A stretch of DNA of 64,000 nt from Rhodothermales bacterium. Lineage in GTDB: Bacteria; Bacteroidota; Rhodothermia; Rhodothermales; JANQRZ01. The stretch is from assembly GCA_965215165.1 (NCBI GenBank), contig CBDCCX010000006.1, positions 524,181 through 588,180 of the forward strand. Direction: 5' to 3'. Made by a program: the position numbers and the translations under genes. Each line of letters begins with the position of its first letter. Positions within the stretch are counted from its first letter, which is position 1. Below the pieces are notes generated by a model. The model searched no databases. It was not told the origin of the DNA and saw only the letters and a program-made list of their open reading frames with translations. Positions 25,438 through 43,322 of the stretch are shown piece after piece.

Positions 25438-26175
25438 ATGCCCCTCCCGTTCCCCGACCTACCGCCCGACGCTGAACTCCAAGCGAAGGCGCTCACCGTC
25501 CACGAGCGCTTGTGCGAGGCGTACGACTGCCCCATCGCGTTCTTCTCCGACAAGGACCCGCTCAGCGAGCTGGTCTCGGCGCTCCTCTCGCACCGCACCA
25601 AGAACCGCGACTCCGGCCGCGCCTACACCCAGCTCCGCGACCGCTTCCCAACGTGGGAGGCCGTCCGCGACGCGCCGACGGCCGAGGTCGAAGCCGCGAT
25701 CTCGCCGTGCACGTGGCCCGAGCAGAAAGCCCCGCGCCTCCAGGCCGTGCTCCGCACCATCACCGAGGCGCGCGGCGGCGACCTGCACCTCGACTTCCTC
25801 GCCGGCCTCGCGGTGCCCGAGGCGCGGGCGTGGCTCGAGCAGATCAAGGGCGTCGGCCCGAAGACGAGCGCGGCGACGCTCCTCTTCAGCACGCTCCGCC
25901 GCCCGGCGATGCCGGTCGACAGCCACCACCACCGCGTCGCCCAACGCCTCGGGCTGATCCCGGAGGCGATGCCGGTCGGTCCGGCGCACGACGCGCTCGC
26001 GGCTTTTGTCCCGCCGGAGTGGGACGCCCAGGCCGTCTACGACCACCACGAGGTGTTCATGCTCCACGGCCAGAAGTGCTGCTTCTGGAAGAACCCGGCG
26101 TGCGGCCGCTGCCCCGTGCTCGACCTCTGCCCGACGGGGCAGGCGCGGCTCAGCGGGGCGCGCGGCGGCGGATGA
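25438..26175 (+). CDS. Endonuclease III family (HhH-GPD) Fe-S DNA glycosylase
   Basis: HhH IKGVGPKT, PVDSH, Fe-S motif CCFWKNPACGRCPVLDLC. Confidence 0.9.
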   Translation: MPLPFPDLPPDAELQAKALTVHERLCEAYDCPIAFFSDKDPLSELVSALLSHRTKNRDSGRAYTQLRDRFPTWEAVRDAPTAEVEAAISPCTWPEQKAPRLQAVLRTITEARGGDLHLDFLAGLAVPEARAWLEQIKGVGPKTSAATLLFSTLRRPAMPVDSHHHRVAQRLGLIPEAMPVGPAHDALAAFVPPEWDAQAVYDHHEVFMLHGQKCCFWKNPACGRCPVLDLCPTGQARLSGARGGG

Positions 26176-26320
26176 TTGCGGCGGCGCTGACGAGGACCGC
26201 GCCGAGCACGACTGAGGCCAGGGCGAAGCGCCCGACCTGCACGGCTTGTTGAAGCGCGTGGCCGAGGAAGAGGACCCCGCCGACGGCGGCGACGAGAGCG
26301 ATGAGTCGGTTCGTATCCAT
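26150..26320 (-). CDS. Putative 56-aa two-TM small membrane protein (not in the ORF track)
   Basis: MDTNRLIALVAAVGGVLFLGHALQQAVQVGRFALASVVLGAVLVSAAAIIRRRAPR*; GC3-rich codons; overlaps the endonuclease III 3' end by 26 nt. Confidence 0.6.
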   Translation of the reverse strand: MDTNRLIALVAAVGGVLFLGHALQQAVQVGRFALASVVLGAVLVSAAAIIRRRAPR

Positions 26321-26326
26321 CGCTCA

Positions 26327-26486
26327 GAGACTGTTTGGATGTGCAGCGAGAAGGCGAGAGCGAGCGAGAAACGGCGGGCCGAGGCGCGCGAAGAAGGCGA
26401 TGCGCCAGCATCGGCGATGCAGCGCCACGCGGGAGCGCCGCTTCGTAGCCGCTCGCAGCCTACGGTTGGGAATCCCAAACAGTCTC
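26327..26486. mobile_element. 160-bp MITE-like element, copy A
   Basis: Perfect 12-bp TIR GAGACTGTTTGG/CCAAACAGTCTC; TCA directly flanks both ends (26324-26326, 26487-26489); central hairpin CGATGC-GCCA-GCATCG. Confidence 0.85.
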
Positions 26487-26915
26487 TCAGACGATGCCGG
26501 AGGCGGGGAGGTGCTTCCGGTCCTCCCACGCGCGGTAGCGCTCGAGCTCGGCGTGGAGCGTCCGCAGCACGTAGCCGAGCACCGCCGCGTCGTCGAGGTA
26601 GCCGATCACCGGGATGAAGTCCGGGATCAGGTCGAGCGGGTTGAGGAAGTAGAGGACCGCGGCGACGATCAGCACGATAGCCTTGAGCGGGACGCGGCGG
26701 TACTCGCCGCCGAGCCACGCCCGCACCAAGCGCAGCAGCACCGGCAGGTCGGTGCGGATCTGCCCGATCTCGTCGCTGTGCTCGGCGATCTTGTCGTAGG
26801 CGTCGCGGACGACTTTGCGGACGTGCTTCGGGCTGCGCGTGATGCGCTCGGCCTGGGCGCGGAAACGTTCGAAGCCGAGTGGCGGGTCGGTCGAGGGGGG
26901 CAGCGTGTCGGGCAT
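26487..26915 (-). CDS. YkvA/DUF1232 family protein
   Basis: AVLYFLNPLDLIPDFIPVIGYLDDAAVL signature. Confidence 0.92.
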   Translation of the reverse strand: MPDTLPPSTDPPLGFERFRAQAERITRSPKHVRKVVRDAYDKIAEHSDEIGQIRTDLPVLLRLVRAWLGGEYRRVPLKAIVLIVAAVLYFLNPLDLIPDFIPVIGYLDDAAVLGYVLRTLHAELERYRAWEDRKHLPASGIV

Positions 26916-26995
26916 CGGAAGACGGGGCGGTCGGAAGTGGGGCGGCGGTCCTATGTTTCGGGAGACCCGCCGCCAAGATACACGCGCCCACCGCC

Positions 26996-29953
26996 ATGCT
27001 CCGCCGCCTCCTGCTCGCCCTCGCGCTCGCCGCGCCGGCCGCCGCACAGCCCGTCGTGCAACCCACCGCCGACCGCGCCGAGACCGCGCCGAACCCCGTT
27101 GCCCCGACGCCCGCCGCCGAGCGCCTCGCCGGCTTCGAGGCCCGCGCGGCGCTCGCCGACCGCTCGCTCCTGTCGAACGTCGCCTTCCGCAGCATCGGCC
27201 CGGCGGTGATGAGCGGGCGCGTCACCGACGTCGACGTCTCGCCGACCGACCCGGCGACCTTCTACGTCGCCTACGCCTCGGGCGGGCTGTGGCGCACCAC
27301 GAGCGGCGGCGCGTCCTTCGAGCCGCTCTTCGACGACCAGGCCGCGATGACCCTCGGCGACATCGCCGTCGACTGGCGCGACGCGGAGGGCGACGGCGTG
27401 ACGATCTGGGCCGGCACCGGCGAGAACAACTCGAGCCGCTCGTCCTACGCCGGCACCGGGGTCTACAAGTCCACCGACGGCGGCCGGGCGTGGCAGCACC
27501 TCGGCCTCGGCGAGACCCACCACACCGGCCGCATCGTCCTGCACCCCGACGACCCGGAGACGGCGTGGGTCGCGGCGCTCGGCCCGCTCTACTCGCCCGG
27601 CCCGGACCGGGGCGTCTACAAGACCACCGACGGCGGCCGGACCTGGACGCAGACGCTCTTCGTGAACGACGACACCGGCATCGTCGACCTCGTCCTCGAC
27701 CCTCAGCGCCCGGACGTGCTCTGGGCCGCGGCGTGGGAGCGGACGCGCCGCGCGTGGGACTTCACCGAGGCCGGCGACGGCTCGGGCATCTACAAGAGCA
27801 CCGACGGCGGCGCGACCTGGGACCTGCTCACGACCGAGGGCAGCGGCTTCCCGACGGGCGCGGCCGTCGGGCGGATCGGGCTCGCCGTGTACCCCGGTAA
27901 CGGAGAGACCATCTTCGCCTCGCTCGACAACCAGAGCCGGCGGCCCGAGGAGCCGGACGACGACGCCCCAGCGCTCACGAAAGAGGCGCTCCGCACGATG
28001 AGCCGCACGGCCTTCCTGGCGCTCGCCGAGGACGCGCTCACCGACTACCTCGACCGCAACGGCTTCCCGCTCTCGTACACCGCCGAGTCGCTCCTCGAGA
28101 TGGTGAGCGAGGGCACGCTGGAGCCGGTCGCCCTGGTCGAGTACCTCGAGGACGCCAACCGGCAGCTCTTCGACACGCCCGTCGTCGGGGCCGAGGTCTA
28201 CCGCTCCGACGACGGCGGCCGGACGTGGAGCCGCACCCACGCCGACCACCTCGACGACCTGTTCTTTTCCTACGGCTACTACTTCGGCGAAGTCCGCGTC
28301 GCGCCCGGCGACCCGGACCGGCTCTACCTCCTCGGCGTCCCGCTCCTCGCCTCCAGCGACGGCGGCGCGACGTGGGCCTCCCTCAGCCAGGAGCACGTCC
28401 ACGCCGACCACCACGCGCTCTTCGTCAACCCGAACCGACCGGGCCACCTGGTCAGCGGCAACGACGGCGGGGTCAACGTCTCGTTCGACAACGGGCAGTC
28501 GTGGTTCAAGGCCAACAGCCCGGCCGTCGGGCAGTTCTACACCGTGGCCGTAGACGACCGGGATCCCTACCACGTCTACGGCGGCTTGCAGGACAACGGC
28601 GTGTGGGCCGGGCCGCACACCCACACGCCCGGCCCCGGCTGGCGCGCCTCGGGCGACTACGACTGGGACTGGATCATGGGCGGCGACGGGATGCAGATCG
28701 CCGTCGACACGCGGACCAACAACACCGTCTACACCGGCTTCCAGTTCGGCAACTACTTCCGGCTTGACCGCCCCGCGCCGGGGGCCGACTACGAGCGGAC
28801 CCGCATTACCCCAAGCCACGACCTCGGCGAGCGCCCGCTCCGCTTCAACTGGCAGACGCCGGTCGCGCTCTCGCGCCACAACCAGGACATCCTCTACCTC
28901 GGGTCGCAGCGCCTGCACCGCTCGCTCGACCGGGGCGAGACGTGGCAAGCGGTCTCGGGCGACCTCACGCGCGGCGGGCGTCGGGGCGACGTGCCCTACG
29001 GCGCGCTGACCTCCATCGCCGAGTCGCCGCTCCGGTTCGGGCTCCTCGTGGTGGGGAGCGACGACGGGCTGGTCCACGTCACCGAGGACGGCGGGCACGG
29101 GTGGGCCGATGTCTCGGCCGGCCTGCCGCCGGACCTCTGGGTGAGCCGGGTCGTCGCCTCGCAGCACGACATGGCCCGGCTCTACGTCGCGCTCAACGGC
29201 TACCGCTGGGACCACTTCGAGGCGCACGTCTACCGCTCCGATGACCTCGGCCGGACGTGGCAACGCCTCGGGACCGATCTCCCGGCCGAGCCGGTGAACG
29301 TGATCGTCGAGGACCCAGAGAATCCCGATCTCCTCTTCGTCGGTACCGACCACGGGCTCTACGCGAGCCTCGACGGCGGCGCGTCGTTCATGACGATGAT
29401 GGGCGAGCGCACCGAGGGCGGGCTGCCGAACGCGCCGGTCCACGACGCCGTAGTCCATGCGGGTGCGCGCGACCTGGTGGTCGGCACCCACGGCCGGTCG
29501 ATCTGGACCGTAGGCCTGGAGCACGTCGAGGCGCTAACGCCGGCGGTGGTGGCGGGCGGGCTGCGGGTGTTCGAGCTCGAGCCGGTGCAGCACGCGGAGG
29601 ACTGGGGCAGCCGGGGCTGGGCGTGGGACGAGCCGACGGTGCCCGAGTCCGCAGTCACCTACTTCGCGCCCGCCGCCGGTCAGGCCACCGTGACGGTGAC
29701 CGACTCCGCCGGCACGCTCGTGTGGGCCGGCTTCGACGAGGCCGAGCGCGGGCTGAACGTCGTCGCCTACGACCTGACCGTCGACCCCGACGAGGTCCGC
29801 GAGGGCAACGAGCGCGCCGACGACGGCCGAGTGTATCTCATCCCTGGTCTCTACACGGTCACGGTCTCGCTCGGAAGTGAGACGGCAGGTGAGACATTGT
29901 CCATCGAAGCAGACAAGGCAGCGCCCACGCGAGAACGGAAGAAGATACCATAG
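26996..29953 (+). CDS. BNR/Asp-box (VPS10/sortilin-like) glycosyl hydrolase-family secreted protein
   Basis: Signal peptide; FRSIGPAVMSGRV, many (K/R)S(T/D)DGGxTW Asp-boxes, HADHHA, GGLQDNG, RFNWQTP; FlgD-like C-terminus. Confidence 0.9.
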   Translation: MLRRLLLALALAAPAAAQPVVQPTADRAETAPNPVAPTPAAERLAGFEARAALADRSLLSNVAFRSIGPAVMSGRVTDVDVSPTDPATFYVAYASGGLWRTTSGGASFEPLFDDQAAMTLGDIAVDWRDAEGDGVTIWAGTGENNSSRSSYAGTGVYKSTDGGRAWQHLGLGETHHTGRIVLHPDDPETAWVAALGPLYSPGPDRGVYKTTDGGRTWTQTLFVNDDTGIVDLVLDPQRPDVLWAAAWERTRRAWDFTEAGDGSGIYKSTDGGATWDLLTTEGSGFPTGAAVGRIGLAVYPGNGETIFASLDNQSRRPEEPDDDAPALTKEALRTMSRTAFLALAEDALTDYLDRNGFPLSYTAESLLEMVSEGTLEPVALVEYLEDANRQLFDTPVVGAEVYRSDDGGRTWSRTHADHLDDLFFSYGYYFGEVRVAPGDPDRLYLLGVPLLASSDGGATWASLSQEHVHADHHALFVNPNRPGHLVSGNDGGVNVSFDNGQSWFKANSPAVGQFYTVAVDDRDPYHVYGGLQDNGVWAGPHTHTPGPGWRASGDYDWDWIMGGDGMQIAVDTRTNNTVYTGFQFGNYFRLDRPAPGADYERTRITPSHDLGERPLRFNWQTPVALSRHNQDILYLGSQRLHRSLDRGETWQAVSGDLTRGGRRGDVPYGALTSIAESPLRFGLLVVGSDDGLVHVTEDGGHGWADVSAGLPPDLWVSRVVASQHDMARLYVALNGYRWDHFEAHVYRSDDLGRTWQRLGTDLPAEPVNVIVEDPENPDLLFVGTDHGLYASLDGGASFMTMMGERTEGGLPNAPVHDAVVHAGARDLVVGTHGRSIWTVGLEHVEALTPAVVAGGLRVFELEPVQHAEDWGSRGWAWDEPTVPESAVTYFAPAAGQATVTVTDSAGTLVWAGFDEAERGLNVVAYDLTVDPDEVREGNERADDGRVYLIPGLYTVTVSLGSETAGETLSIEADKAAPTRERKKIP

Positions 29954-40544: not shown

Positions 40545-41357
40545 TCACCCGGCCGGGTCGCCGAGCGCGTCGCGCAGCGCTTCGGCCGCGCGGCGGGCCG
40601 CCTCCGCGAAGTCGTCGCCGCCCGAGGCGTAGAGGATGCCTCGGCTGCTGTTGACCAGCAGCGGCCCGGAGCCGGCGGCCGCCACCACCGCCGCCGCATC
40701 GCCCCCCTGCGCGCCGACGCCGGGGACGAGGAACGGCGCGTCGGGATAGGCGGACCTCAGTTCGGCCAGCAGCCCCGGCCGCGTCGCGCCCACGACGAAT
40801 CCGGCCTCGCCGGGCCGGTCGGCCGCGGCCTCGACCGCGAGCCGCGCCACGCGCCGGTAGACCGGCTCGCCCTCGGCGACCAGGTCCTGCACCTCCGCGC
40901 CGCTCGGGTTCGAGGTGGCGACGAGCACGAACGCGCACCGGCCCTCCTGTTCGAGAAAGGGGACCACCGAGTCCGTGCCCATGTACGGCGCGACCGTCAC
41001 CGCATCGGCGGCCACGCCCTCATAGAAGGCGTGAGCGTACTTCCGCGCCGTATTCCCGATGTCGCCCCGCTTGGCGTCGGCGATCACGAGGCGGCCGTCG
41101 GGCACGGCGGCGACGGTCTCCTCGAAGACCCGCCACCCCTCCGCTCCGAGGGCTTCGTAGAAGGCGAGGTTCGGTTTGAAGGCGCAGGCGACCTCCGCCG
41201 TGGCCTCGATGACGGCGCGGTTGAACGCGAGCATGGCCTCGGCTGCGGGCCGGTCGCGGAACGGGCGCGGCAGCCGCGCCGGGTCGGGGTCGAGGCCGAC
41301 GCAGACGCGGGAGCGCGTGGCGGCCTGAGCGGCGCGGAGTCGGTCGGTGAAGGACAC
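40545..41357 (-). CDS. pyrF: Orotidine-5'-phosphate decarboxylase
   Basis: VCVGLDPD, FKPNLAFYEALG, DAKRGDIGNTA, TSNPS, LVPGVGAQGG, NSSRGILYAS. Confidence 0.96.
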   Translation of the reverse strand: MSFTDRLRAAQAATRSRVCVGLDPDPARLPRPFRDRPAAEAMLAFNRAVIEATAEVACAFKPNLAFYEALGAEGWRVFEETVAAVPDGRLVIADAKRGDIGNTARKYAHAFYEGVAADAVTVAPYMGTDSVVPFLEQEGRCAFVLVATSNPSGAEVQDLVAEGEPVYRRVARLAVEAAADRPGEAGFVVGATRPGLLAELRSAYPDAPFLVPGVGAQGGDAAAVVAAAGSGPLLVNSSRGILYASGGDDFAEAARRAAEALRDALGDPAG

Positions 41358-41375
41358 GGGCGAGGGTGGAGGTTA

Positions 41376-41535
41376 GGCTGTGTCCGGTGATTCAGACCGA
41401 AGGCGAGCCTGAGCACGCCGCGATCTCAGCCAGGCGTGCGAGAAGCCAGATGCCGTAGCATCGGGCGATGAGCACAACGCGGCTGCGGCCGTCGAGGGCC
41501 GGGCGCAGGCCGTGGTGGATTCACCGGACATGGCC
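41376..41535. mobile_element. 160-bp MITE-like element, copy B
   Basis: TIR GGCTGTGTCCGGTGATTC vs GGCCATGTCCGGTGAATC (15/18); TTA flanks both ends (41373-41375, 41536-41538); hairpin GATGC-CGTA-GCATC exactly central. Confidence 0.82.
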
Positions 41536-42321
41536 TTAGAGCTTGATGAGTTCCGCTTGTTCGTAGCGGCGGTCGGCTCCGGCCACGAGGTCGGCCTCGC
41601 GGTCGCGGCGCTTGAGCAGGCCGGGCAGGCCGCGGTTTTCCCACAGCCGCTTCATCGCCCGGATCTGCTCGGCGATGCCGCCGAGGTCGCCGTTCCGCAC
41701 GAGCGCTTCGAGGGCTTTCATCTCGCGGCGTCGCGCGCCCGACTTGCTCGCGCCCCGGTTGTAGACCAGCGACAGCAGCGCTGCCTGGGCGTCGGCCGGA
41801 AGTTCCTCGATGCCCGGATAGGCGCGGCGGGTGAGCCGGGCGAAGCGCGGCAGCGTCGAGGTGTAGAACACGACCTTCGCCGCCTCGAACGGCACCGTGA
41901 CGTGACTGACGCCGTCGCGGGCCTGGTTGGCCGCCTCGCCCTTCCTCCCCACGATGGTCAGCAGGCTGGCGAGGTCGGCGTCGGTGATCCGCCCGCGCCA
42001 GTCTTTCTCGATCTGCCCAGCGGGGGTGTGCCCGAGGTCGTACCCGATGCCGACTGTGAGGCCGCTCTCGCCGCCGGGCCAGACGGGGTGCGTGAGGCTC
42101 CGCCGGTAGAACGCCTCCGACGAGATCTCCTCGCGGACGATCAGGCTCAGCCCGCGCTGCGACACGACGAGGTTGGCCGGCTCCTCGTCGAGCGGTCCGA
42201 GGCAGCTCGTCAGCACGGCTTCGAGCCGGGTGAGCGAGACGGGGCCGAGGAGGCCGTCAGCCACGACGCCAAGGCGGCGCTGCACGGCCTGGATGCGCTC
42301 CTTGATGGTCAGGGTGCTCAT
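41536..42321 (-). CDS. Peptidoglycan-binding, pesticin/lysozyme-like muramidase
   Basis: N-terminal QRRLGVVADGLLGPVS (PG-binding); VWPGGESGLTVGIGYDLG; ALLSLVYNRG; GLLKRRDRE; no signal peptide. Confidence 0.8.
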   Translation of the reverse strand: MSTLTIKERIQAVQRRLGVVADGLLGPVSLTRLEAVLTSCLGPLDEEPANLVVSQRGLSLIVREEISSEAFYRRSLTHPVWPGGESGLTVGIGYDLGHTPAGQIEKDWRGRITDADLASLLTIVGRKGEAANQARDGVSHVTVPFEAAKVVFYTSTLPRFARLTRRAYPGIEELPADAQAALLSLVYNRGASKSGARRREMKALEALVRNGDLGGIAEQIRAMKRLWENRGLPGLLKRRDREADLVAGADRRYEQAELIKL

Positions 42322-42347
42322 GGCGCGGAGGAATGGCGGATCGCAAA

Positions 42348-43322
42348 CTACGGCGTAGCGTGGCGTAGCGTCTCGGCGAAGCGCTCCGGCAGCCGCCAGG
42401 GGTCGCGGCGGACGCGGCTCCACTCGAAGCGTGCGACGAGCGCGGCTGCCGACACCGGCTTCGGCGCATCGCTCAGCCCGAGCGAGTGGGCGAGCGCCCC
42501 GACGAGCGCCTCGGGCGCAACCCCTGCCTCGCGCAGGCTGCGGAGCGTCAGGCCGGCGTCGCGCTTCGAGAGCTTCTCGCCCTCGGCGCTGAGCACGAGC
42601 GGGAGGTGGGCATACGCCGGCACCGTTCCGCCGAGCGCCTCGAGGAGCTGTACCTGCCGCGCCGTCGAGTCCAGCAGGTCCGCCCCGCGCACGACCTCGG
42701 TGACGCCCATCGCGAGGTCGTCCACGACCACGGCGAGCTGGTAAGCATAGAGTCCGTCGCGCCGCTTGAGGACGAAGTCGCCCGTCGTCTCGCTGACCGT
42801 TTCGGTGACGACGCCTTGCACCCAGTCCTCGAACGTCACGGCACCGTCGCGGACCAGGAAGCGCAGTGCGGCATCGGGGTGCGCGCCGAGCCGGTCGAGC
42901 CAGTCCGGGGCGAGGGCGCTCGGCCGGAGCGACGCAGGGTAGGGTGGGAGGCCGGAGCCGCCGTGCGGGGCCGAAGCGATTTCGCGCAAGTCCTTCCGTG
43001 AGCGGCGACACGGGAACAGCCGCCCGGCCTCAGCCAGCCGGTGCAGCGCGGCCTCGTAGAGCGCAGACCGCTCGCTCTGCACGTAGGGCGCGTGCGGGCC
43101 GCCCACGTCCGGTCCCTCGTCCCAATCTAGCCCGAGCCACCGCAGGTCTTCCAGCGCGGCCTCGGCGGTGCCGGCGACAGCGCGCGGCGGGTCGAGGTCC
43201 TCAATCCGCCAGACGAACGCCCCGCCCCGGCGTCGCGCCGAGAGCCACGCCGCCAGTGCCGTCCGCGCGCTGCCGACGTGGAGCAGCCCCGTCGGGCTCG
43301 GCGCGAACCGGCCGCGCGGCAT
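42348..43322 (-). CDS. gluQ: Glutamyl-Q tRNA(Asp) synthetase
   Basis: GRFAPSPTGLLHVGS, RIEDLDPPR, DFVLKRRDGLYAYQLAVVVDD, RGADLL, KLSKR; no anticodon-binding domain. Confidence 0.93.
   Translation of the reverse strand: MPRGRFAPSPTGLLHVGSARTALAAWLSARRRGGAFVWRIEDLDPPRAVAGTAEAALEDLRWLGLDWDEGPDVGGPHAPYVQSERSALYEAALHRLAEAGRLFPCRRSRKDLREIASAPHGGSGLPPYPASLRPSALAPDWLDRLGAHPDAALRFLVRDGAVTFEDWVQGVVTETVSETTGDFVLKRRDGLYAYQLAVVVDDLAMGVTEVVRGADLLDSTARQVQLLEALGGTVPAYAHLPLVLSAEGEKLSKRDAGLTLRSLREAGVAPEALVGALAHSLGLSDAPKPVSAAALVARFEWSRVRRDPWRLPERFAETLRHATP

Follow-up and report, generated by a model that had tools for sequence, protein, structure and literature searches.

Two segments of 160 bp, called copy A and copy B here, lie in the window (the whole stretch of 64,000 nucleotides of Rhodothermales DNA that was analysed). 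They carry similar centres between dissimilar inverted ends, which raises the question of whether they are mobile elements of one kind, what would have moved them and why the centre is kept.

The two copies in the window

[quoted passage not shown]

26324..26326, no strand: left TSD of copy A, TCA, a direct repeat of 26487-26489, read from the sequence
26327..26486, + strand: copy A, 160-bp MITE with end type A (GAGACTGTTTGG) and core allele II
26327..26338, + strand: left TIR of copy A, GAGACTGTTTGG, the perfect complement of 26475-26486
26382..26432, + strand: conserved apical core of copy A, allele II, ...GCGCGAAGAAGGCGATGCGCCAGCATCGGCGATGCAGCGCCACGC
26475..26486, + strand: right TIR of copy A, CCAAACAGTCTC, read from the sequence
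26487..26489, - strand: right TSD of copy A, TCA, read on this strand as TGA, the stop codon of the DUF1232 gene
26487-27047, - strand: DUF1232 gene upstream of copy A (Pfam PF06803, 7.7e-15)
26150..26320, - strand: small ORF downstream of copy A, 56 aa, its ATG 6 nt from the copy

The corresponding features of copy B are given below.

41373..41375, no strand: left TSD of copy B, TTA, read from the sequence
41376..41535, + strand: copy B, 160-bp MITE with end type B (GGCTGTGTCCGGTGA) and core allele I
41376..41390, + strand: left TIR of copy B, GGCTGTGTCCGGTGA, complementary to 41521-41535 at 13 of 15 positions
41432..41482, + strand: conserved apical core of copy B, allele I, CAGGCGTGCGAGAAGCCAGATGCCGTAGCATCGGGCGATGAGCACAACGC
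41521..41535, + strand: right TIR of copy B, TCACCGGACATGGCC, read from the sequence
41536..41538, - strand: right TSD of copy B, TTA, read on this strand as TAA, the stop codon of the lysozyme-domain gene
41536-43011, - strand: lysozyme-domain gene upstream of copy B (Pfam PF00959, a weak match, 9.6e-5)
40545..41357, - strand: pyrF (orotidine 5'-phosphate decarboxylase) downstream of copy B (PF00215, 8.4e-30)

Both copies are 160 bp long and are flanked by TNA duplications, TCA/TCA for copy A and TTA/TTA for copy B, as the original prediction had described. The other details of that description are also found in the sequence: GAAGGCGAG is present at nucleotides 24-32 of both copies, as is the GATGC-N4-GCATC hairpin; 42 of 53 columns of the cores align (blastn E-value 6e-6 in a 160 x 160 search); and the two copies carry different inverted ends. 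Overall, A and B have 85 of 161 aligned columns in common. The RNA folds on the + strand reach -84.5 kcal/mol for copy A (z -5.57) and -87.6 kcal/mol for copy B (z -4.78), and on both strands each copy folds better than 200 of 200 shuffles (z -5.6 and -4.8 on the + strand). The likeness of A and B and their folding are far beyond chance.

Family size and distribution

The covariance model used throughout (CM R1) was built from 22 genomic copies; copy A scores 123.6 bits (E-value 8.5e-26) and copy B 127.9 bits (E-value 9.1e-27). A search of the genome that contains the window gives 70 matches, compared with about 13 full-length blastn copies of A and 41 matches of an iterated nhmmer search with the core. 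The closest other copy to copy A in this genome is 91% identical to it. The two segments had been presented as the same element found twice; they do belong to one family, of about 70 copies, but represent different subfamilies of it. A set of 22 copies with about a dozen end types can be aligned from end to end almost without gaps; they share one homologous body. Lengths range from 156 to 191 bp with a mode of 159-161, and nearly all copies have TIRs of 12-20 nt. Some copies are inserted next to each other, and there is no apparent link to position along the chromosome. The sequencing runs that contain these genomes are all of metagenomic DNA, and the depth of DNA on the contigs is flat.

Concerning other genomes, CM R1 finds carriers in 22 of 41 Rhodothermales genomes, which belong to 14 GTDB families, with copy numbers from 0 to at least 72 per genome, also among close relatives. 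Outside Rhodothermales, none of about 280 genomes of the phylum contains a CM R1 match. An exact 24-mer of the core is found in one further Rhodothermales MAG, and in no viral contig and no JGI metagenome contig. None of the 4227 families of Rfam 15 matches the window at gathering score, or either copy at E-values up to 10. The elements are prokaryotic MITEs by the usual description, being shorter than about 300 bp, non-coding, bounded by TIRs and TSDs, and dispersed in variable copies. They are an undescribed family of small mobile elements of Rhodothermales bacteria.

Insertion sites and mobility

Perfect 3-bp direct repeats flank 18 of the 23 GAG-ended copies (2.1% by chance), among them one copy with the non-consensus repeat ATA/ATA, and the target context of this group is C-TNA-G. 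D-type copies also have a TNA duplication, while TA flanks type C copies, the majority of type B copies and several further copies with GG ends on both sides. An ORF stop codon adjoins 35 of 66 copies. With a strict stop-codon test, 21 copies are antisense and 10 sense to the upstream gene (p = 0.07); a first crude count of about 16:4 in favour of antisense shrank under this stricter test and is not relied on. If the antisense bias is real, read-through transcripts would usually carry the weaker-folding strand.

The orthologous site in congener G004 is without copy A: the neighbouring genes are 13 nt from each other and TCA occurs once, and the 56-aa ORF, for which a Pfam search gives no match, is kept. 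The start of pyrF is 19 nt from copy B, and the region upstream of pyrF contains no copy B in eight relatives. The view of these segments as non-autonomous transposable elements agrees with the approximately 70 copies, the 18 of 23 perfect repeats and the absence of copy A in the congener. Other copies exist, an empty site exists, and no described family gives an exact match. The units are not of the REP/BIME (RAYT) class, as they are 160 nt long with TIRs and TSDs and singly dispersed, and are not palindromes of 20-40 nt.

Ends and partner insertion sequences

Approximately 20 end types are present in the genome that contains the window. Six of them match, over 15-20 bases, the ends of intact IS5-family insertion sequences (ISs) of 850-1080 bp in relatives. 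The partners are listed below.

L037 and L023: partner ISs of end type A
L034: partner IS of end type A2
L035: partner IS of end type C, 873 bp, TA duplication
L036: partner IS of end type D
L020: partner IS of the GAGGCTGACTATGAA end type
L032: partner IS of the GAGGCTATTGCA end type

Matching ISs and MITEs have identical ends and the same type of duplication; for example, one end of L037, an intact 869-bp IS of congener G001, begins with the same 12 nt as the left TIR of copy A. An autonomous element with the same ends is thus found for six end types but not for that of copy B: no intact IS with copy B's ends is found in 21 relatives, where matches stay at background level. The likeness is confined to the ends (16 nt by blastn; for the L020 and L032 types, inspection by eye extends it to about 20 nt at most). 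A blastn comparison of the MITEs with all nine ISs matches the ends alone, without any interior likeness, and the core is not found in the IS loci L017, L020 and L023. Since the interior of the ISs is unrelated to that of the MITEs, the latter are not simple internal-deletion derivatives.

The partner transposases are 27-68% identical to one another. All six of the proteins or ORF halves searched (from four of the partner ISs, L037, L017, L035 and L036) match the IS5-family model NF033580 (1e-73 to 3.6e-30), and PF13586 is present at partner IS loci. The MITE ends start with GAG or GG and are accompanied by a TA/TNA duplication of 2-3 bp, which is the IS5-family (IS1031/IS427-type) pattern. 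According to the ISfinder family table, GAG ends with a 3-bp repeat and one ORF are presumably IS1031-like, and GG ends with a 2-3-bp repeat and two frameshifted ORFs are what we take to be IS427-like. The assignment of copies A and B to the IS5 family, IS1031 type, which had been made from the ends and the TNA duplications, is supported by the intact ISs of relatives, as these have the same ends and TNA/TA duplications and their transposases match NF033580. The suggestion that several transposases moved the element is also supported, in that six end types match six different ISs, all of one IS family. An IS630/mariner (Stowaway-like) origin of the TA-flanked types was considered and rejected, because L035 (type C) encodes an IS5-family transposase.

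It had been noted that the window contains no transposase. This is correct, and it extends to the whole assembly: searches with PF01609, PF13586 and, by tblastn, ten IS5-type ORFs find no IS5-family transposase. The sole IS-like repeat of this genome is a 1.34-kb rve/IS481-like one with four copies, whose ends are unrelated to those of the MITEs. A scan of the same genome for end pairs 600-6000 bp apart gave mostly noise. The relatives are for the most part represented by fragmented MAGs, and assemblies of this sort often lack multi-copy ISs; in one of these fragmented assemblies (G015), the sole PF13586 locus (L024) does not have the ends of that genome's abundant MITE subfamily. The identical ends suggest that the copies were mobilised by the matching ISs.

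Core alleles and modularity

The central core of about 50 nt occurs as three alleles in the genome that contains the window, and the matrix of alleles by end types is nearly full. The core alleles are thus spread combinatorially over the end and arm types, which indicates that core and ends are exchanged as modules. For instance, the copies at 2205152 (type A) and 1417518 (type C) are 97% identical in the core and 37% in the outer arms, whereas those at 3148318 and 2425663 (both type A) are 92% identical in the outer arms and 51% in the core. Discordant pairs of the first kind, with similar cores and dissimilar arms, number 11, and those of the second kind, with similar arms and dissimilar cores, 23. 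The F-type copy at 3286676 has 91% identity to copy B in the core and 35% in the outer arms, and the core of D-type copies, whose arms are unrelated in sequence, is essentially allele II of copy A. An optional extra hairpin lies at one fixed position. Gene conversion between copies, instead of function, could account for part of the conservation of the core.

Hairpin structure and covariation

The whole element forms one long imperfect hairpin, in which the terminal repeats make up the closing helix. In the MAFFT alignment, 76.9% of the cells are paired (58% when shuffled, approximately 38% when slid) and 50 of 63 pairs show compensatory changes. The CM alignment across 12 genomes gives 82.9% paired (vs 57%) and compensatory changes in 59 of 62 pairs; its pair counts are inflated, as it is fitted to the model, but the independent MAFFT alignment gives the same result. 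Of the two possibilities offered for the ends, that they are swapped or that they covary, both apply: the ends covary as a closing helix, and core and ends are reshuffled between subfamilies.

There is also a difference between the strands. G·T pairs outnumber A·C pairs (250 vs 125) and G·A outnumber C·T (195 vs 63), with the same trends in this and in other genomes. The + strand of the element has the lower folding energy in 61 of 66 copies (p = 1e-11), and unpaired columns are rich in A/G. Mutation bias was rejected as the source of the asymmetry, since the direction that it predicts is wrong. In genomes of 49-57% G+C, CAAGG, GA, GCAACGC and the tip hairpin are kept while the stems have changed. 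Covarying helices, conserved unpaired bases and a preference for one strand form the generic pattern of a structured RNA, and the covariation and strand asymmetry support selection on a single-stranded fold.

Neither copy A nor copy B contains a sigma-70-type promoter or an intrinsic terminator. Other possible sources of the structure were discarded: the compensatory variation of the arms is not compatible with a small protein being encoded there; blastn and nhmmer match MITE copies alone, which argues against origin from a host RNA gene; and no 3-nt bulge, as a K-turn would have, accompanies the tandem G·A pairs.

Proposed mechanism and alternatives

The explanation that we favour, and consider probable as a whole, is that of a modular MITE mobilised by IS5-family elements, with a body selected as a single-stranded fold. 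The TIRs of 12-17 bp would be recognised by IS5-family DDE transposases that full-length ISs provide in trans, so that a single passenger could ride several transposases and each MITE type would behave like the intact IS bearing the same ends. GAG-ended types would insert at (C)TNA(G) with 3 bp duplicated, and several GG-ended types (C, most B) at (C)TA(G) with 2 bp duplicated. In this genome of 70% G+C such targets are mostly stop codons; the duplication regenerates the stop, which would explain why half of the surviving copies, A and B included, lie directly on the stop codon of a gene. The loss of every matching transposase from this genome would have left about 70 copies stranded. The body would be an imperfect hairpin kept by compensatory substitutions, along which purine-rich internal loops and a hairpin at the tip are conserved; it is taken to be a selected single-stranded fold because one strand folds better and G·T pairs are in excess. 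Of the earlier proposal of selection on an RNA fold, the single-stranded fold is supported, by the covariation and the 2:1 ratio of G·T to A·C; this single strand would most likely be RNA, transcribed through or from the element. Our best guess at its role is a cis-acting hairpin, which may be a signal that protects or processes transcript ends or a platform for protein binding, and which would make the insertions tolerable or useful. We also advance, tentatively, the possibility that rod (160 nt) and conserved tip (50 nt) together form a functional structured RNA, a passenger repeatedly re-fitted with the ends of different IS5-family transposases and with its core traded between backbones.

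The main alternatives differ in what the fold is for. The rod and core might act in transposition as DNA: a 160-bp duplex is too stiff to join its ends, and a fold-back or cruciform would pair both ends into a transposase-binding duplex, with the tip nucleating extrusion or binding a bending protein, so that selection would act on the element's own spread and not on RNA. The closing helix is indeed formed by the terminal repeats, pairing is kept along the whole length, high copy number was reached with many different transposases, no promoter or terminator is detectable and orientation relative to genes is near-random. However, a cruciform draws on both strands alike and so predicts G·T equal to A·C, and we observe 250 vs 125 with 61 of 66 copies strand-biased; the asymmetric purine-rich internal loops are conserved, yet unnecessary for DNA; intact ISs with the same transposases do without the core; and the tip is not A+T-rich, which easy extrusion would favour. 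We find a role as DNA rather unlikely. A free-standing small RNA gene with its own promoter, acting in trans (for example in protein binding or transposase regulation) and packaged between the ends of several ISs, would explain the strand-specific fold, the covarying stems, the invariant loop bases, the hairpin at a fixed position and the movement of core alleles between backbones. As the strand that folds better mostly runs antisense to the neighbouring gene, such a gene would need a promoter of its own, but no sigma-70-type promoter is present (those of Rhodothermales may differ), none of 4227 Rfam families matches at E-values up to 10, and seventy dispersed copies are unusual for a trans-acting RNA, which makes this reading unlikely.

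Two further accounts dispense with a function of the core or with transposition. In one, the core is functionless and the most similar segment is homogenised by short-tract gene conversion or by template switching in gap repair, with drifting arms and with ends that follow the transposase that happens to be available. The discordant identities of core and arms do show exchange between copies, and 97%-identical cores are found in otherwise unrelated backbones of one genome; we nevertheless consider it quite improbable, given that CAAGG, GA and GCAACGC are kept across GTDB families from 49 to 70% G+C with covarying stems between them, that three alleles coexist in one genome and that the strand asymmetry is left unexplained. 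In the other, the copies are not transposons but structured RNA genes or regulatory hairpins, the 'TIRs' being the closing stem and the TNA flanks stop codons. It is true that every flank reads as a stop codon on one strand or the other, that half of the copies abut the end of a gene and that the ends covary like a stem. Yet in 18 of 23 GAG-ended copies the flanking triplets repeat in direct and not in inverted orientation, one pair being ATA/ATA, which is no stop codon; intact transposase-bearing ISs with the same duplications have identical ends over 15-17 nt; copy number varies from 0 to at least 72 among close relatives; and copy A is missing at a conserved site, while some copies are inserted side by side. 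We give this reading hardly any credence, and the sequence comparisons refute it for practical purposes.

Comparison with known elements

The closest likeness of the ends is to the IS1031 and IS427 groups of the IS5 family (NF033580, transpos_IS5_3), which have the same ends over 15-17 nt, the same duplications (TNA for GAG; TA/TNA for GG) and the same C-TNA-G/CTAG context. The ISs are 850-1080 bp long and encode a transposase, whereas the Rhodothermales elements are 160 bp long, encode none and have an unrelated interior.

[quoted passage not shown] The duplications of bcr1 are 5 bp long, and the account of it in the review names no IS partner (PMC3184786). It resembles the Rhodothermales elements in size, direct repeats and compensated structure, but differs in sequence and in phylum. 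To our knowledge, neither interchangeable ends matching several ISs nor modular exchange of a core has been reported for bcr1.

Correia (NEMIS) elements of Neisseria and ERIC/IRU elements of enterobacteria are TIR-bounded repeats of 100-160 bp inserted at TA. They are often co-transcribed with their neighbours, and their long RNA hairpins affect the processing and stability of transcripts, a working mode like the one proposed here. They differ in that they show no sequence likeness, belong to another host phylum and have one end type per family; we know of no transposase for them, whereas the Rhodothermales elements have partner ISs. The plant MITEs Stowaway and Tourist relate to their autonomous partners through TIRs and the TA/TNA duplication alone and are cross-mobilised by several mariner-like or PIF/Pong transposases. 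Apart from being eukaryotic, they differ in that cross-mobilisation relies on similar ends and not on one body with many sets of ends, and we know of no conserved, covarying, strand-specific core in them.

MITEs are usually seen as internally deleted copies of one IS, with the fold-back shape as a by-product. The family described here departs from this view: the ends of at least six different ISs, which belong to two IS5 subgroups, are found on a single conserved body that has no other likeness to those ISs, core and ends recombine as modules, and the body bears marks of a selected single-stranded fold, with loop bases invariant from 49 to 70% G+C. This raises the questions of what a transposase needs beyond the TIRs and whether a structured nucleic acid can persist by switching transposases. 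If the tentative reading as an RNA passenger is true, the element would be a mobile RNA exploiting a guild of transposases and not a decayed copy of a single IS. Among bacteria it would then be the first MITE chassis whose ends can be interchanged, and Rhodothermales would have a new structured-RNA class of their own. For annotation, a single covariance model accounts for about 70 intergenic segments in each genome of many Rhodothermales, and half of these segments lie on stop codons.

Copies A and B and their family

The two repeats in the window were read as follows:

Copy A, 26327-26486, 160 bp: TCA, GAGACTGTTTGG ... CCAAACAGTCTC, TCA
Copy B, 41376-41535, 160 bp: TTA, GGCTGTGTCCGGTGA ... 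TCACCGGACATGGCC, TTA

Both copies contain GAAGGCGAG at nt 24-32 and, in the middle, a GATGC-N4-GCATC hairpin. Their cores are identical at 42 of 53 aligned columns (blastn E 6e-6), and over the full length 85 of 161 columns are in common. The sequence agrees in all details with the original prediction (coordinates, length, duplications, ends, core and hairpin). Each element takes up the entire intergenic space of a minus-strand gene pair: copy A separates a DUF1232 gene from a 56-aa ORF, copy B a lysozyme-domain gene from pyrF. The upstream gene of each pair has its stop codon (TGA for copy A, TAA for copy B) in the right-hand duplication. No sigma-70-type promoter or intrinsic terminator was found for either copy.

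Rather than one element occurring twice, A and B are members, from different subfamilies, of a larger family. Genome-wide searching, originally proposed for the core, yielded further copies: about 13 full-length relatives of copy A (blastn, 70-91% identity), 41 core matches set between at least eight kinds of ends (iterated nhmmer), and 70 matches, all chromosomal, to R1, a covariance model made from an end-to-end alignment of 22 copies. This alignment is almost gapless across about a dozen end types, and the copies therefore share one homologous 160-nt body. R1 matches are found in 22 of 41 Rhodothermales genomes, in 14 GTDB families, with 0 to at least 72 copies per genome. In an even sample of the phylum (301 genomes), R1 matched only this genome and one other of the Rhodothermales, under strict filters which weak matches could escape. 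The proposed Rfam comparison gave no family resembling these elements, and our literature search gave no MITE report for the order. Two A-type internal-deletion derivatives outside the window (C6:609339-609432, 94 bp; 980807-980864, 58 bp) keep both ends and have lost the core.

Exchange of cores and ends

The core occurs as three alleles, I, I-long (with an additional 15-nt GGACGCGTCCCGTAG hairpin) and II, whose distribution across end types is combinatorial:

End type A: alleles II and I-long
End type C: alleles I and I-long
End type D: alleles I, I-long and II

Copies 2205152 (A ends) and 1417518 (C ends) have 97% identity in the core and 37% in the outer arms, whereas 3148318 and 2425663, both with A ends, have 51% and 92%, respectively. 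Eleven pairs are discordant in the first sense (core at least 90%, arms at most 55%) and 23 in the reverse sense (core at most 75%, outer arms at least 85%). It is implausible that identical alleles arose independently; therefore, stretches of sequence have passed from one backbone to another. This could plausibly have come about by template switching while the gap left by excision was repaired, or by short-tract conversion. Outside the window, family members with unlike ends are direct neighbours in two places, 1 nt and 4 nt apart (C6:1510873-1511195 and 2205152-2205505), and share or abut their TNA. The end of a resident copy thus seems to be a favourable target, and insertion beside such a copy might be one way in which ends are exchanged.

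Hairpin fold and strand asymmetry

The whole element forms one long imperfect hairpin, or rod. In the MAFFT alignment (63 pairs), 76.9% of cells are standard pairs, compared with 58% when columns are shuffled and about 38% when partners are slid, and 50 of the 63 pairs have compensatory changes. Of the 'swapped or covarying ends' suggested originally, both parts are found. In the model-fitted alignment (57 copies, 12 genomes), which leans toward the model structure, 82.9% are paired vs 57% when shuffled, with compensatory changes in 59 of 62 pairs.

The two strands differ. G·T is commoner than A·C (250 vs 125) and G·A than C·T (195 vs 63), at equal ratios in this genome and the others, and unpaired columns are A/G-rich. 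In 61 of 66 copies, A and B included, the core-sense strand has the more stable fold (mean -85.4 vs -74.4 kcal/mol, p = 1e-11). Positions conserved at 90% or more form three clusters: the tip hairpin, the purine loops flanking it (C-AAGG...GA...GA...GCAACGC) and a pair of arm islands (AGGCGAG..CGAGC opposite GCCG...GCAGCC). These are kept even where the copies have only 49-57% G+C, with differing stems in between.

In a cruciform the two strands would be equivalent, so the asymmetry argues for selection on a single strand. Exchange between copies may contribute to the uniformity of cores within one genome; however, it accounts neither for the strand asymmetry nor for identical loop bases being kept in different families. 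Judged from sequence, the body would be selected as a single strand, most likely RNA. The fold part of the predicted 'selection on an RNA fold' is supported by the compensatory changes, the G·T excess and the 61 of 66 copies.

Target sites

Perfect 3-bp direct repeats flank 18 of the 23 GAG-ended copies (TNA, plus one ATA/ATA; chance 2.1%), with C-TNA-G as the preferred context. The flanks are TA within CTAG for type C, most of type B and several other GG-ended copies, and TNA for type D. The E-type copy 379457-379620, outside the window, has three additional GTGCTGTGACAC+TCA units in front of its left end (C6:379415-379460), i.e. terminal repeat plus TNA, head to tail; these could stem from several aborted insertions, or from slippage at this end.

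Of the empty sites proposed originally as a check, one exists for copy A: at the orthologous site in the congener G004, the two genes are 13 nt apart with a single TCA. Copy B is missing upstream of pyrF in eight relatives. In one of them, G001 (locus L051, C9), a full-length 854-bp IS with GAGGCTGACTATGAA ends and a TGA target lies in the same gap, 65 nt upstream of pyrF, which makes the gap look like a recurrent landing site. In the congener G003 (L053, C21) a hairpin occupies this gap; its arms are built of short tandem repeats, with GGAGGAGTGGGA units facing CTCTGTC units.

Thirty-five of the 66 full copies lie directly at an ORF's stop codon, counting ORFs supported by third-position G+C (gene calls by a simple heuristic). 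TA and TNA targets would be concentrated at stop codons in a 70% G+C genome, and copies there presumably survive because the duplication restores the stop. Relative to the adjoining gene, 21 copies are antisense and 10 sense in this stricter count (p = 0.07), a bias which is suggestive at most; a stronger one from a cruder first count was overstated.

Partner insertion sequences

The window was predicted to hold no transposase; by PF01609, PF13586 and tblastn, none of the IS5 family was found in the whole genome. IS5-type transposases are present in 12 of the 22 carrier genomes, where intact ISs bear the same ends and duplications as the MITEs.

Partner ISs in relatives and the MITEs they match
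L035 (G006), 873 bp: CTA, GGGCGTGTGGACAAT ..., TAG; type C
L036 (G006), 943 bp: TTA, GGGCCTATCCGAAAAG ..., TTA; type D
L034 (G006), 884 bp: TCA, GAGACTGTTGAGGA ..., TCA; type A2
L037 (G001, same genus), 869 bp: TGA, GAGGCTGTTTGGTAA, other end GAGACTGTTTGGTAAG; type A, including the 12-mer of copy A
L020 (G001, 8 copies), 854 bp: ends GAGGCTGACTATGAA; four copies here and most copies sampled from G015
L032 (G007), 854 bp: ends GAGGCTATTGCA; the copy at 1511037

Beyond the outer 15-20 nt, MITE and IS no longer resemble each other, and none of the ISs compared contains the core. No IS with the ends of copy B was found in 21 relatives, mostly fragmented MAGs from which ISs may be missing. All partner transposases scanned match NCBIfam NF033580 (IS5 family), and the transposases are 27-68% identical to each other; with the shared ends and duplications, they support the predicted IS5 assignment. 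In ISfinder terms, the GAG-ended, single-ORF ISs with 3-bp duplications would be IS1031-like and the GG-ended, two-ORF (frameshift) ISs with 2-3-bp duplications IS427-like. By their duplications, their ends and the empty site, the 160-bp repeats are transposable elements, and we infer from the matching ends that these partners mobilise them. The 1080-bp IS L030 (G007:C1:2524400-2527900, with sister copies; ends GGCCGTGTGAGACAA) has two internal tandem-repeat arrays within its transposase reading frames, translating as repeated VALRD and AYDRA units, an unusual feature in ISs of such length.

Comparison with known elements

Plant Stowaway and Tourist MITEs have only their ends in common with the elements of their transposases, and Correia and ERIC elements work much as does bcr1, described below. 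MITEs with long RNA stem-loop folds are familiar. In behaviour, the nearest described analogue is bcr1 of Bacillus cereus, a transcribed repeat of about 155 bp that shows compensatory changes (PMC3184786; review PMC10969869). The Rhodothermales elements are of a known kind (MITEs), and their combination of swappable ends and core exchange appears to be new: we found no literature description of one conserved covarying body with many end sets matching different ISs and modular core exchange.

Other repeats in the genome

This genome has a single IS-like repeat, of 1.34 kb, whose 385-aa product resembles rve/IS481-type transposases; the ends of this repeat bear no relation to the MITE ends. Three of its copies are 99.7% identical and one 86% (C6:158503-159913, 1174704-1176042, 1242970-1244309 and 2927360-2928700). 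The small contigs C1-C4 (18-29 kb) contain exact 2.6-10.7-kb repeats, both internal and common to each other; they could represent a plasmid or phage rich in repeats, or else variant assemblies of a single replicon.
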